Shown here: positions 54,907 to 61,436 of the stretch, in pieces
How positions within the stretch are numbered: position 1 is the stretch's first letter
Layout: every line of letters starts with the position of its first letter
From: Nitrosopumilus sp.
GTDB taxonomy: Archaea > Thermoproteota > Nitrososphaeria > Nitrososphaerales > Nitrosopumilaceae
Reading direction: 5' to 3'
Length of the DNA: 64,000 bases
Assembly (NCBI GenBank): GCA_965205675.1
Contig: OZ242186.1
Location: forward strand, 384,001 to 448,000
Program-made: the position numbers and the translations under genes
The notes under the pieces: model-generated
The model's input: only the letters and a program-made list of their open reading frames with translations
Database searches by the model: none
Told to the model about the DNA's origin: nothing

Positions 54907-55377
54907 ATAGAAATTAAATAAATCGACTATATCAATAAAGCTAATTCAAACAATCAGTTTATGGGATTTATTAACTAAATATTGGGTTTTAGGCTCATAG
55001 ATTAGCGGTTCTTTTGGTTCAATGATTATAAGCAGTTTTTATGCATAAAATAGGATCTATTGAATTCTTAATTATGTCGTAACAGATTAATGAAATATTA
55101 GGGATTTACAAAATTTCAAATAAAAGAAGTTTAGATAAATTTATGATTAATTTTTTGTTTTTTCTTGAACCCTGATATATTCTTCTAAGAAATCATGATT
55201 CTGACAGCCTAGGATAATTTTTCAATTTCAGTAGATGGGAAAGTATTTAATTCGGATCATAAAATAACAATCATTTCCTCAAATTATTCAGATAGAAAAA
55301 GCTTGATGAATGTGTCCAATTCCGGCTTCCTAGAAATCATCAACGAAACAAACAGAAATCAAACACATTCTGTGACA

Positions 55378-55472
55378 ATTCCAAGTCAACAATCGATAGA
55401 GTAACTCAATACACTGCCATGAATATGTCTGGAGAAGGATACATTCCAAGTCAACAATCGATAGAGTAACTC
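55378..55472. repeat. 30-bp direct repeat at the 3' end of the IS5 transposase
   Basis: attccaagtcaacaatcgatagagtaactc at 55378 and 55443. Confidence 0.9.
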
Positions 55473-56472
55473 TCTTGTTTTTATGGCACCATTATATGAT
55501 TTGATTTCAGAATCAAACCTTCTTTTTACTTCAGAAAATATTCTCACAGTTTTATTCTGTTCATGGTACAATGTTTCTTCATCAAATTCATTTCTTATCT
55601 GTTTTCTATACTTGTCATGTGTATCTAAAATTGAATTGTCTCCTCTAACTGGAATTCTTGAGAGAATATTCTCATATCTCTAATTTGCTTATGAATTGAT
55701 TCTGTATTGTTGTATCCCAAAATCAGTTCGTCCCTTATTTGACATCGTATTCTTCTCCTGTCTGCTCATCAATAACTCTTGTTCCTTTCTCTGGCATCTT
55801 TCTTGCATATGCCTTTACAGGGGTCTCAAGATTATCCCAGTCAAGTGACATGTGTGGCTTTATGTGGTTGTACCAGTGGACCAGCTCATCAATGGTGCCA
55901 AACCATTTCTGCTTTCTCTGAATCTCGCCGTGAAATCTTTCGAGCTTGCCATTGGTTTGAGGATGGTTCACTCTTGCCATGATGCGTTTTATTCCAAGTC
56001 TAACCAGTTCTTGCTCAAACTGTGATGCTCCTTTTCTCTTGTATTCTGATTGGTTTGCATAAAATTGGGAGCCATGATCAGTTAGAATTGATGCAGGCCT
56101 ACCGTGCTTTGCAATTGCCTCATGTAATACTACAAGTGCGTTATCTGTTGTTGCCTCTGCAAACACTCCATGAGAAACGATAAACCTTGATGCGTCATCC
56201 TGGTAACACAGAAACCATCTGCCATCGTCTAACTGCTTCCAGTCAGTATGCCACATGGAGTTTGAATATGTCCTTTCATATCTAACCCACTTTCGCCTTC
56301 TCCTCTTCTTTGGCTGATCTTCTGCCAACCCCTCATCTCTCATAATTTTGTGTATGGTATTGTGAGGTATGTGTGTTCCAGTGGTATCAATTATTTTCTC
56401 CAGGAATACTGCAGAACACCTGAACTTTTCAAATGTAGACTGGACAGTCTGTACCATCTGCTCTGTAATTAT

Positions 56473-56673
56473 CCATGTGAATTGTTTTTATACATTTCCT
56501 CTCTTTCCATACATCAGGGCATGGCTTTCGCTAGAGAATGGTTTCAATCAAAAGATGGCAGACATGTATCCATACGAGACTATTCTCTCAATGCTATCTT
56601 CATCCTAGTTAGGATTGTTCGCAGTTATTAGACGAGGCCTTGTCCCTCAATAATTACAACGCGACTTGCAGTC
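56473..56673 (-). ncRNA. IS110 3' non-coding region, candidate bridge/seek RNA (copy B)
   Basis: Scaffold shared with 57835-58022; paired stems enclosing variable loops. Confidence 0.6.
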
Positions 56674-57832
56674 CTAACTATAATTTTGTACAAATTCTCT
56701 CCTCTCCTTTAACATCCAATAAATCACCCTCAGGATCTTTGATGCACCAGCTACTGCAGCTTTGGATGATCCTCTTTTCTTTTTAATGCGATTGTAAAAT
56801 TTTGTAATGTCACTATCCTTGGCATGAATTGCATGAGTGTGTATGCATTCTGTTAGAACCCATCTCAATGTCATGCTTCCCCTTTTTGTTATTCTGCCAT
56901 GGTGTATTGTATCTGCAGAGTTTCTAACTGATGGTACAACTCCTGCATATGCACACAGTTTGTGAGAATCATTGAATCTCTCAATATCTGCAATCTCTGA
57001 TGCAATGACAAGCGAAGAATAATGCCCAATTCCCGGAATCGAGTTTATCAAAATTGCATCAGGATTAACTTTTACAGCAGCATACACTTTGGAATTAATC
57101 TCTGCAATCTGTAAATTAAGGTGGCTGATTTGTTGCAAGAATCCGTCTATTCTGTAATCTCCTAGTGCCTTGAGTCTTCTGTTGTATGTTTCAGTGAATG
57201 TAACTCCTGGAATCCTGATTCCTTCCTGTAACAATATTCCATGAACTGAATTCTTGACAGATGTTCTCCATTGGATTAGTTTTTTCCTATATCTTACAAG
57301 CTGTCTTTGTTGTACAATCTTTTTGTCTGGAACATAACATGTGGCAATGTATCCTCCTCGTAAAAGATCTGCCAATATCTTGGCATCAATCTTGTCTGTT
57401 TTCTTTTTTGATGTAGCAATTGCCTTTGTCAAATATGGGTTTGAGAGTGTGACGTTTTTGTATCCCAAAGTATCTGTGAGAAATCGATACGTGTCATACC
57501 AGACTGATGAGGATTCCATTACAATATTTGCAGAAATTGGTATTTTTGCAAAATGCTTTTTGATGGATTCATGAGTGTTATCCACTTTGTCATTTTGTAA
57601 TACTTTGCCTGCATCATCCATTTATTACTTGAAGAAACTTCTTGTGCAGGTCAATGCCCACAAACATGCCTTTCTTTGGATTTTTTCTAATCTGTTTGTT
57701 TGTAATCTTTTTTGGAGCCGAGTATTTACGAACCTTGGAACTAGATTCATTTTTTATGCTATCTGATTTCCTTGCTTTCTTATTCACATATCCATGTGAA
57801 TCCCTTTTAACTATTGTCGGTATTTTTGCCAT
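56674..57832 (-). pseudogene. IS110-family transposase (B), frameshifted near 57620
   Basis: VGIDLHK | MESS, KTDKIDA, SIPGIG, YAGVVPSVRNSA. Confidence 0.88.
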
Positions 57833-57834
57833 AT

Positions 57835-58022
57835 TAATTACAGCTTACGCTAATACACTCATACTTTCAATCACAGATGAAACCAGACACATATCCATTC
57901 GGGGTTCTCCCCCAGTACCATCTTCATCCATTTATTAGGTGAAACCGCGGTTATAGTTTCGAGGTATTATGCATCCTCAATGTGAAAACGCGGCCAAACT
58001 CCTAACTGTAATGTTTTACAAA
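57835..58022 (-). ncRNA. IS110 3' non-coding region, candidate bridge/seek RNA (copy A)
   Basis: Homologous scaffold to 56473-56673. Confidence 0.6.
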
Positions 58023-60214
58023 TTATTGATGACATTGAACAAATTCTCTCCTCTCTTTTAGCATCCAATATATGACACGCAATAACTTTGATGCAGCAGC
58101 AACTGCTGCCTTTGAGGTCCCTCTCTTTTTCTTAATGCGATTATAAAATTTTGTAATGTTGCTATCTGGTGCGTATCTAACATGTGCATGAATTGCCTCC
58201 ACTAGCAACCATCTTAGCATGGTGCTTCCTCTCTTTGTAATTCTTCCGTGATGTATTGTATCTGCAGAATTTCTCACCGATGGAACAATCCCTGCATATG
58301 CACATAACTTGTGAGAATTTGAAAATCTACTAATCTCTGCAATTTCTGAGAATATGCTCAATGCAGTGTATGGTCCAACTCCAGGTGTGGATATCAAAAT
58401 ACACACACCAGGATTATCATTTACCATGCGACGTATCATGGAATCTATCTTTGCAACCTCCTTTTTGTGAAATTTTATGCTTTGTAGGTACGAATCTATT
58501 CTATAACTCTCCAATTTTCCAAGTGCACGTATGTGTTCTGAGGAAAATGGTGTTGCTTTGATATGGATTCCCTCCTGTAGTGTAATACCATGTATGGAAT
58601 TCTTCATCTTTACAATAATGCGTATAATCTTGTGTCGATGTCTTACAAGCTGTCTGTATTGCACAATTGTGTGATCTGGCACAAATGATTCTGCAATGTA
58701 TACTCTCTAACAAAATTTTATGATCTGTTGATCTGATTTATTTTACCAAATGCCATATTGATCAAAACATTACACATCAAACCATGAATAATCAAAAATT
58801 AATTCAAGCATACAAAGATGAAAAGAACGTCAAGGTAAAAGAAAGGCTATTTTTGATAAAGCGAGTATTACTTGAGAACCAAATTGCATCACATGTTGCA
58901 AAGAATCTTGGACGTGTACGTTCATGGGCATACAAATGGTTAGATAGATTTGCAGAATATGGAATTGCAGGACTGCAAGACTTGCCTAGAACTGGCAGAC
59001 CAACTAGTATACCAAAAAAGAAACTAGTCAGCATTCAACTACAAATTGCAGAAAAACAATCCGGCTGGAGTGCAAAGCAAGTGATGAATCTGATTTATCA
59101 AAAATCAGGTGTAAAATATCATGAGGTTCATGTGTACAGATTATTACACAAATGGGGATTTGTTCCAAAGGTTGCAGCAAAGAGATTTGTAAATTCAGCT
59201 AGTGTTGAGGAAAAACTCTGGTTTAAAAAAACTCCAAAGAACAAATAGCCTCAAAAATAGCAAAAGGCTTTACAGTTCTTGCACAAGATGAGTCCATCTT
59301 TACTGCTGATGCGATATTTAGAAAAAAGATGTGGGTAAAGAAAGGAACCCGTCCAATTATTCTAGTAAACGGGTCACATCAAAAAACAATCATTTTTGGT
59401 GCACTGACTCATGACGGCAGGCAATTATTCAGACAATATGAAAAATTTGATCAGTACTGTTTTTTGGATTATCTAAAGGAATTGCACAGAAAGTTTGGCA
59501 AGATTCTAGTCTATGTAGACCGAGCACCACAACACAGATCAAAACTAGTACAAAAATATCTTGATGAGAATGCAGATGATGTTCTATTGAATTGGTTTCC
59601 AAAAGGCTCACCACAGCTCAATGCAGTTGAGGAAGTATGGAAGCAAGGAAAATACAATTTGTTGGTGTCACAGTATCAACCATCTCTAAGTAATCTGAAA
59701 AATAACATCTCCAAATATTACAGAACCAGACGATTCAATTTAGACATTCTCAAGTATATGCAACGAGAGGATGGTTGACGAACTTATGTTAGGAAGTATA
59801 TCCTCCTCGTAGCAAATTTGCAAGATGGTACGCATCAATTTTATCAGTCTTTTTGAGTGATGATGCTATTATCTTTGTGTTGTATGGATTAGATAGTATA
59901 ACATCAAGATGTAATTTGTCTGTCATGTGTCTATAAAGGCCATACCAGACAGATGATGACTCTAAAACATATTTTGCGTTCTTTGGAATTTTGGATGTAA
60001 TTTTGCTAATAGCAGAAAAATCACTGGAAATCTTTTTGTTAAATAATAATTTGCCAATCTCATCTACTGCTGCCACCTGTACAGAGTTCTTGTGAACATC
60101 CAATCCTACAAACATCAAATATTTTTTTTCAGGAAGGGTAGTGTGTTTGTTTGCATTTCTTACTTTCTTGATACGAATGCAAGTACCATCTAATTTCCTA
60201 GCTGATTTTGGCAC
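58023..60214 (-). pseudogene. IS110-family transposase (A) interrupted by IS630
   Basis: VGLDVHK...LLRGG-Y|IAESFVPD rejoins in frame after removing 58701-59798 and one TA. Confidence 0.9.
58701..59798 (+). mobile_element. IS630-family element (copy A2), intact
   Basis: TA duplication at 58699-58700 and 59799-59800; TIRs tactctctaacaaaa / tacttcctaacataa; orfA 58784-59248; DDE orfB to 59778; slippery TTTAAAAAAA at 59222. Confidence 0.93.
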
Positions 60215-61436
60215 ATATGGTTATAGTTATTCCCTTTGGCCTTCCAGGCTTGCCTAGAATCGGAATTGCACCAGTACGGCGATACCGTGAGTAGAGTTTC
60301 TGCACCCACCGAACAGATATCTTCATGGATGAGGCTACGTCTGCGTTCTTGGCACCATCCTCTTTTGACTTGATTATCCAGAATATCTGGATTGGATCTA
60401 ACTTTTGCATAATCTTGTGATTCTTTCCTCTTTTCCAAACGTATCTTGACTTTAGTCTGGAAATGATGGGGTGAACTAATTTGAGGATAATAGAATTGTA
60501 TTCGTTGGAGTAACATCATACATTTGAGAGAATGATTTTGGGAAAATGTTTTATGATGTCATGAGATACGAGATGATGGTGCTGAATCACAACTGCACAA
60601 ATCAACTGGGATTTCATATCAAAATCTACTGACATTTTTGTAAATGCGTGCCCGAGATTGCATCTGCAAGAATAGTATGGTGTATAGCAGCAACTGTCTG
60701 TTTTTAAATTTTGTTGCATCTACTCCTGCAAATATTGCATCCGAAGATATTATTCCAATAAATCTACTAATTGCAACATTATCCAATTACAACTCAAAAC
60801 TATACTCAATAACAAAAATTCGTCACCCTATTCTAAACTCGATTTACGTACATTGTAGATTCAAGTTTAAATTTCAAGAATTAGCATAATTTGGAAGATT
60901 TTGGGTCATGAATATTTGTTAGACAGTATCTCCTATTTTACAACACTTCAAAAGATAGCAGCAGTTAGATTAAGTGACATTTTCCTGTGTGATTTCTGTT
61001 GCCACATCTAACCATTCAACAAAACTCTCATAACTTTTGACTCGTACTGCCTAAGGACTAGCGGTATGTTGTGTGTTGGTGTATTGAAAATGTATATTCT
61101 GATTTGGAATGCAAAAACAGTGGAACATTGATTTTCTTTAGAATATACAGCAGCAGGAGGGAAATCATGCGTTGGTATTTGTTTTTCATAGAATAAAATG
61201 ATTATCAATAATTGATGATTAGTTTGATGTATGATTAGGTAAAATATTGATGATTTCTAGAAAGCCTAAAAAATAAAGTTATTTTTAATTGAAATGTAAG
61301 CTACAAAGTTATAATTGGGATGATGAAAATATTTCAATTGTCAAATCAAATATGCAAAATTTTTAGGAATTGTAAATTTGTATTTAATCTTTGACCAAAG
61401 TTTAATATACAGAGTTTTGATTTTACCGATCGAACT

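Follow-up and report, generated by a model that had tools for sequence, protein, structure and literature searches.

Putative guide RNAs in the 3' non-coding regions of two nested IS1111-type elements from a Nitrosopumilus genome

We have analyzed two related insertion elements, here called type A and type B, that lie one inside the other on the minus strand of a 64,000-nt stretch of the genome of Nitrosopumilus sp. (GenBank assembly GCA_965205675.1, contig OZ242186.1, positions 384,001 to 448,000). This whole stretch is referred to as the window, and coordinates are those of the window unless they are given as genome positions. Comparison of these elements with their other copies and relatives makes it highly probable that the 3' non-coding regions of both encode the guide RNA (seekRNA or bridge RNA) of archaeal IS1111-type elements. 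The case is built on the anatomy of the elements, their empty sites, covariation within the RNA structure, and covariation between the guides and the flanking DNA. The predicted RNA would fold into two stem-loops, of which the first would carry the address in its internal loop and the second, with its sense copy of the right tip, would probably hold the donor. With this RNA as guide, the DEDD transposase would insert a circular form of the element by recombination into a matching site in one orientation, and type A would by this route land between the 6-nt terminal extension and the subterminal inverted repeat of its siblings. We infer that the RNA is made, is bound by the transposase and directs recombination. 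RNA-guided recombinases of the IS110/IS1111 type are under development as genome-writing tools; to our knowledge they have so far been characterised in bacteria only. The present host genome is a single contig of 2.01 Mb, and its small-subunit ribosomal RNA fits the archaeal model (1467 bits) better than the bacterial one (1097 bits).

Four mobile elements are stacked in the region when it is read on the minus strand: an IS481-like host, type B, type A and an IS630-like element. The last three make up a 3758-nt block (60228-56471) that interrupts the host element. The parts of the block that bear on the guide RNAs are these:

56471..57789, minus strand: body of the type B IS1111-like element, delimited by empty paralogous sites and by the 3758-nt joint
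57783-57789, minus strand: left subterminal inverted repeat of B
56471-56481, minus strand: right repeat and tip of B
60223..60228, minus strand: 6-nt left terminal extension of B, AACTAT, severed from the B body by A; present in occupied sites and absent from empty ones
57790..60222, minus strand: type A IS1111-like element, within the left end of B, between the 6-nt extension and the subterminal repeat

In the genome as a whole, type B is present in 10 full, near-identical copies, with one more tail (96% identical) on a chimeric copy. Type A has 9 tails, and 8 full A copies were compared. A third type, C, whose transposase is ~60% identical, has 4 copies, and several decayed copies are found besides.

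The ends of the elements were placed by blasting the flanks of the copies against their own genome to find uninterrupted insertion sites. One family of paralogous regions has two empty members, one member with B and one with B plus A; a small repeat family has one empty member and two occupied by B. In contigs of all four public runs, independently of the paralogues, 56468 is followed at once by 60227; the joint omits 3758 nt, 4 letters at it fit either side, and it represents the host element without the block. An empty IS481 site had been proposed by an earlier reading of the window, made from its letters alone (the sequence-only reading), and the uninterrupted site on the minus strand indeed holds exactly the 10-mer of that proposal, in the four runs and in two paralogues. 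By comparison with the empty sites, B starts with the extension AACTAT followed by the 7-nt subterminal repeat, and it ends with the complementary repeat and 4 nt. The letters ATAA are common to both B junctions and ATA to the two junctions of type A, which by the same logic starts with AACCAT and its own repeat. The subterminal inverted repeats are thus 7 nt long (ATGTGAA and its complement), with 6 nt outside them on the left and 4 nt on the right. B ends at 56471; the start at 56473 given earlier lies 2 nt within it. A different placement, with the left end at the inverted repeat, an AT core, and the preceding 6 nt as target, is ruled out by the empty paralogues and the public-contig joint: both lack these 6 nt, which therefore belong to the element.

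This anatomy also settles the order of insertion, which had been called ambiguous. Since the 6-nt extension of B stands to the left of A and the body of B to its right, A sits inside B. The host element with B but without A was seen in no contig of the public runs, although contigs cannot show absence.

The two tails contain the following predicted RNAs:

56518..56683, minus strand: type B guide-RNA scaffold with two stem-loops, starting at the transposase stop codon (covariance model R1, 171.1 bits)
57837..58011, minus strand: type A guide-RNA scaffold (model R1, 115.4 bits)

A scaffold common to the two minus-strand non-coding regions had been suspected from conserved blocks of letters. These blocks are present in both tails, which align at 73% mean column identity, and the similarity extends well beyond the window: a 14-row alignment could be assembled from the window tails together with those of type C, of decayed copies and of relatives in six further genomes (seven genomes in all). 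RNAalifold gave a consensus of two stem-loops for this alignment, and from it we built R1, a covariance model of the kind that had been suggested as a check. With at most 18 candidates scored per genome, the R1 scaffold was found in at least 29 of 151 genomes of the genus and in at least 22 of the 98 high-quality ones. Pairing was then counted over 24 pairs in 41 matches (39 distinct rows). Standard pairs fill 95.9% of the cells, compared with 34-45% when the partners are slid by 1-3 columns, and 13 of the 24 pairs have changes on both sides, values reached by 0 of 500 shuffles; the alignment counted was itself fitted to R1, which favours structure. The helices thus carry compensatory changes. 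Single folds show an alternative outer helix for stem-loop 2, in a part where the alignment is out of register.

Both putative address strands lie in a single large internal loop of stem-loop 1:

56649..56659, minus strand: 5' loop strand of B, TTGTAATTATT, antisense to the uninterrupted target across the insertion point
56623..56632, minus strand: 3' loop strand of B, TCTAATAACT, placed by the left junctions of six stand-alone B copies and a permutation test
57979..57988, minus strand: 5' loop strand of A, TTTTCACATT
57949..57959, minus strand: 3' loop strand of A, AAACTATAACC

The 5' strand of B agrees in 11 of 11 letters with the two empty paralogues (genome positions 1159226 and 1629595) and in 10 of 11 with the empty host site. 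Ten of its letters, TGTAATTATT (56649-56658, minus strand), had been singled out in the sequence-only reading as the reverse complement of the empty site, and their reverse complement is the uninterrupted host site in the joint from four of four runs. The 3' strand of B repeats, in the sense orientation, up to 6 nt of the left flank and then the first 4 nt of the B left end. The loop strands of A are laid out alike and read a different site. Its 5' strand is antisense to the left subterminal repeat of B and C (7 contiguous nt, 8/10 overall), and its 3' strand is a sense copy of the 6-nt extension of B followed by the first 4 nt of the A left end. An equality noticed earlier, between 57949-57958 and the junction at 60219-60228, is explained by this composition, and the same 10 letters (C/T at position 4) precede 17 A left ends. 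The two elements had also been described as a natural pair with different guides; the 5' strands of A and B do differ exactly where their targets differ. One refinement follows from the junctions: what the 3' loop strand matches is more than the target, since it extends from the flank into the element's own left end.

Covariation of the loops with the insertion sites, the point on which the sequence-only reading had staked its proposal, was assessed on each side of the element separately. Both loop strands of every match were taken from the model-based alignment, and the right tip was located through the stem-loop 2 motif; in 28 of 38 rows the tip and junction follow the scaffold at a distance of 39-42 nt. 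Seven of the 38 rows on the right side, and more on the left, had no detectable end and were left out, and the relatives compared are not independent of one another. On the right side the score was the longest common run between the reverse-complemented 5' strand and the 16 nt at the right junction. For 29 distinct 5' strands the mean run is 6.14 at the cognate junction and 3.58 at the junctions of other elements; a run of at least 7 occurs in 14 of the 29 guides and in 2% of the non-cognate pairs, and 0 of 20000 permutations reach the observed sum. On the left side we scored the contiguous match of the variable part of the 3' strand to the flank, counted from the junction. Here an inverted-repeat search had given a candidate left end for 17 of 31 elements, several of them false; 11 passed a credibility filter, and four further left junctions came from coordinates worked out by hand. 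One element, L057, matching 5 nt, was excluded by the filter, and for type B the best-matching of the six stand-alone sites was used, the others matching 2-3 nt. For the resulting 15 distinct 3' strands with a credible left end, the mean match is 4.13 nt against 1.14 nt for non-cognate pairs; matches of at least 5 nt occur in 9 of the 15 and in 0.5% of non-cognate pairs, and again 0 of 20000 permutations reach the observed sum. Loop and target therefore covary on both sides. The last 4 letters of the 3' strand track the first 4 letters of the element itself: they are identical in 6 of the 15, and 7 more differ only by U opposite C (bottom-strand G), which could wobble.

These tests bear on another explanation, that the tail is simply a 3' untranslated region or a terminator, or else serves as an antisense regulator of the transposase gene, and that its matches to the flanks arise by chance in AT-rich DNA. 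The genome is indeed AT-rich, and the 11-mer target of B occurs in it 30 times where about 11 would be expected. Chance is excluded by the permutation tests over 29 and 15 distinct guides rather than by any single match, and the matches fall at a fixed place, at the junction that follows the scaffold; we consider this explanation extremely improbable.

Several other results weigh against a guide RNA in these tails. Besides the fitting of the counted alignment to R1, single-sequence folds of the two window tails are not more stable than those of shuffled sequences (z = -0.80 and -0.73), and 42 of 200 and 50 of 200 shuffles fold at least as well; the support for the scaffold is therefore comparative, not thermodynamic. 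A search of both strands of 55000-61000 against Rfam, with E values up to 1, gave no matching family, and returned just two weak and unrelated matches, to a lncRNA and to U6. On the right side 15 of the 29 guides match their flank by fewer than 7 nt, and on the left 6 of 15 match by 3 nt or less; many of the weakly matching guides appear to be on decayed or truncated copies. Twenty perfect 11-mer targets of B are unoccupied. Both window copies have broken transposase genes. Finally, inspection by eye found no guide antisense to the left end beside the crossover, such as IS621 has. The fold energies in particular would suit a tail that works as DNA, its target- and end-matching blocks being either sites bound by protein or remnants of earlier recombination, with no part for a guide RNA; the stem-loop 2 motifs, as sense copies of the ends, also look like repeated protein sites. 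A DNA site, however, is not required to keep 13 of 24 pairs paired through two-sided changes. Moreover, the two loop strands match the target in opposite senses, one antisense and one sense, as proven seekRNAs do, and the transposase family is the RNA-guided one. On balance we regard the DNA-site explanation as quite improbable and retain the guide RNA.

All 10 copies of B have the same right flank, with consensus AATTAYA, and a left flank that ends in AT. Type B would be addressed to the site AAT/AATTACA(A), which lies in the small repeat family and, in the window, in the IS481-like element. In other parts of the genome the B target lies within a dispersed repeat of ~100 nt, which consists of a T-run, the target, and then a G-rich motif. 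Copies of this repeat are at genome positions 1994440-1994560, 210400-210500, 1039150-1039250 and 881170-881270, and copies holding B are at 202500-203930 and 1108000-1109430; one copy is empty, two have B, and three are variants one letter off in the target. A separate observation concerns the contigs of runs X2 and X7, in which the B right tip (56473) is joined to host position 55772 on opposite strands, with 4 letters shared. The site at 55772 resembles the 3' loop strand of B (7 letters) rather than the 5' strand, and the joint may represent an off-target insertion in another strain.

The targets of type A are its own siblings. Nine of nine genuine A right ends directly abut the left repeat of B (8 cases) or C (1 case), with the same junction to the base, and all 17 A left ends are preceded by an extension of B or C type. 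As the A loops predict, the sequences support the left end of siblings B and C as the target of A. The same arrangement might come from homologous recombination or tandem duplication among relatives, the loop matches reflecting common ancestry of the ends. A, B and C do have end sequences in common, one A-B pair with mismatched left and right flanks testifies to recombination between copies, and the B copies behind A form a sequence subgroup of their own. This origin nevertheless leaves unaccounted for a junction that is base-identical in nine of nine cases, with both B and C as partner. The 3' strand of A (B extension plus the first 4 nt of A) also stands in the same register as that of B, and the 5' strands of A and B part company exactly at the target differences. 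We therefore judge recombination or duplication unlikely as the source of the nesting, and prefer guided insertion of A.

The five B copies behind A have six common substitutions, which occur in none of the five stand-alone B copies, and they lie at no fewer than three different B-type targets. The simplest reading of these sequences is that one B::A unit formed and then spread whole by means of the B termini and B address; repeated independent hits by A, or recombination between copies, would be the alternatives to a single spreading unit. Some further arrangements involving A deserve mention. At genome positions 63663, 566137 and 1407684 the 6-nt left extension of A is present in two or three tandem copies at A left ends, which could have arisen from A landing in A, followed by recombination. 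At genome 996458-999100 an A-B pair has the flank of the host IS481-like element on its left and the small-repeat flank on its right, and because these flanks differ we take the pair to be the product of recombination between two copies. Runs from other organisms contain different neighbours: in run X6 a C-type right end stands directly before a B-type left repeat (region 57792-57800), and in run X7 an A-type right end is followed by different sequence. Nesting partners thus vary between strains. More speculatively, A could be parasitic on its relatives, with its guide aimed at the B/C left end. In this scheme A may keep its guide and ends and borrow the enzyme of a sibling, since all A copies carry the same transposase frameshift; B::A units spread; and stem-loop 2 provides a dual donor match. 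We offer this as a tentative idea that is rather doubtful at present.

The strands of stem-loop 2 that resemble the element's own ends are:

56567..56573, minus strand: 3' loop strand motif ATGGATA of B, a sense copy of the right tip
57888..57898, minus strand: 3' loop strand of A, a sense copy of the A right tip
56591-56599 (B) and 57882-57891 (A), minus strand: 5' strand copies of a left-end segment

The conserved ATGGATA had been equated earlier with the end of the element. It equals the right tip in each tail, and in relatives it changes together with the tip: the motif is ATAGAT in the eight rows that have an ATAGAT tip, and AAGGTA and ATGGCA in the two types with those tips. The 5' strand contains a 7-10-nt sense copy of an internal segment of the left end, ~30-42 nt in. 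This copy is at least 7 nt long in 10 of 15 elements and changes with the segment among relatives, an agreement reached by 0 of 5000 permutations. Stem-loop 2 may therefore hold the donor through two sense-strand matches, to the right tip and to the left-end segment, in a manner that differs from IS621. The stretch of the stop codon and outer stem was considered as an antisense guide to the left end, which it resembles in some elements; this candidate was rejected, as coding and pairing explain the resemblance better.

The transposase genes place A and B within a known family. Pfam PF01548 and PF02371 match both window elements and an intact copy of B, and the intact B transposase covers positions 1-342 of the 343 in the NCBIfam profile NF033542, "IS110 family RNA-guided transposase", with a score of 228.8 bits (cut-off 140). 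The window copy is described by one line:

56674..57667, minus strand: broken transposase gene of type B; PF02371, and PF01548 over profile positions 15-152 only

A 2-nt deletion near 57622 removes from it the N-terminal part that bears the first catalytic Asp. The same deletion is found in 8 of the 10 B copies; the two others, at genome 616010-617131 and 1108255-1109376, are intact, with 373 codons. All A copies have the same extra G in a G-run, which splits the gene, and none has the full open frame. Because their own genes are broken, the window copies could be moved only with enzyme supplied by intact copies. The NF033542 profile begins at residue 44 of the intact B frame, just after Met-43, giving ~331 amino acids, within the range of ~330-350 amino acids typical of IS1111 transposases. 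In A, B and C the transposase gene is followed by the longer non-coding region, ~200 nt from stop codon to right tip, and the B copies use a single target sequence in a single orientation, as IS1111 elements do. The C-terminal motif of IS1111 transposases is G-L-x-P-x4-S/T-G, occasionally with T-A, in the account of Siddiquee et al. (PMC11187229); type B has G-V-V-P-S-V-R-N-S-A, in which the spacing and the Ser are kept and the final Gly is replaced by Ala. By these sequence features A and B belong to the IS1111 group of the IS110 family, the last residue of this one motif being the sole departure.

The remaining features of the stack are the following:

55705..56470, minus strand: 3' part of the host rve-integrase (IS481-like) element; Pfam rve and rve_3, with the extent of the repeat from blastn
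55735-56457, minus strand: open reading frame (ORF) for the C-terminal part of the host IS481-like transposase; Pfam rve, rve_3
60229..60494, minus strand: 5' part of the host IS481-like element, from blastn and the 56468-to-60227 joint
58699..59798, plus strand: IS630-like (DDE_3) element of 1100 nt, at a TA in the A transposase gene; Pfam HTH_32/HTH_33 and DDE_3

The IS630-like element splits type A, which is 2429 nt long here compared with 1330 nt in the other copies. Its own gene lies in two frames, an HTH part at 58784-59248 and a DDE_3 part at 59329-59778. Contigs of three public runs contain a joint from 58698 to 59799, in which the 1100 nt are skipped and the ends are TA..TA. A repeat of ~20 copies, represented in the window near 1421 (genome 385421, minus strand), starts with the same 10 letters as the left subterminal repeat of B and C, ATGTGAATAA. 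These are followed by an A-rich stretch and always preceded by the same 22 letters, which end in ...TAATTACAC. The repeat may be a miniature derivative of the IS1111-type family or the end of another element.

The known mechanism is unchanged by this analysis; it is extended to another domain of life, with detail that can be tested. New here are the genus-wide scaffold, the comparison of both loop strands, base by base, with real empty sites, and the nesting in the left end of siblings. Within the genus the one scaffold comes in dozens of natural variants that carry different addresses. As the targets can be read from empty and occupied sites, a table of loop positions against target positions can be drawn up, including the 4 letters of the element's own left end. 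The nesting of A in B indicates that guides can turn against a sibling, which bears on competition among elements and on the formation of composite units. Archaeal IS110 recombinases have been catalogued by homology; full-text searches turned up no paper on IS1111-type guide RNAs in ammonia-oxidising archaea, although Supplementary Table 5 of PMC11208160, with its predictions for ISfinder entries, may include some from archaea.

The closest known systems are the IS1111 seekRNA elements ISEc11, ISKpn4, ISPa11 and ISPst6, as described by Siddiquee et al. 2024 (PMC11187229). They are like A and B in their DEDD transposase of ~330-350 amino acids, the long non-coding region downstream of the gene, the subterminal inverted repeats with terminal extensions, and the natural re-direction between relatives, exemplified by ISEc11 and ISXne4. 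In the same account the top-strand match of IS1111 seekRNAs lies 5' of the bottom-strand match, the reverse of the IS110 types, and stem-loop 1 of A and B has the IS1111 order. The present elements differ from these in having an archaeal host and in being known from sequence alone. In type B the C-terminal motif closes with S-A where those elements have S/T-G, the last 4 nt of the 3' loop strand correspond to the start of the element's own left end, and stem-loop 2 has sense copies of the right tip and of the left-end segment ~30-42 nt in.

The bridge RNA of IS621, a member of the IS110 group (Durrant et al. 2024, PMC11208160; PMC13626964), is alike, in these descriptions, in having two internal loops for target and donor ends, in reading both target strands, and in the agreement of the final two letters of the 3' strand with the donor, comparable to the "handshake" dinucleotides. 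In the IS621 of PMC11208160, unlike A and B, the RNA lies 5' of the gene rather than 3'. The order of the strand matches is reversed, and long subterminal repeats belong to A and B. Neither A nor B showed an antisense right-donor guide beside the crossover, and in place of the CT dinucleotide the junctions here have 3-4 nt in common, ATAA in B and ATA in A. The same authors report bridge RNAs predicted in the right end of 93% of the ISfinder IS1111 elements (PMC11208160).

Two further systems resemble particular features of the window elements. Like type A, one known IS1111-type element has as its fixed target the end of another mobile element, entered in one orientation; type A differs in that its target is the left end of a sibling of the same family, which yields nested B::A units. 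ISPpu9 of Pseudomonas putida (PMC12288879), as described there, likewise belongs to the IS110 family and has a small-RNA gene downstream of that for the transposase; several circular intermediates and modular movement have been reported for it. It differs in being bacterial and in its REP targets. The ~100-nt repeat that holds the target of B recalls these bacterial IS110 elements with targets in REP repeats.

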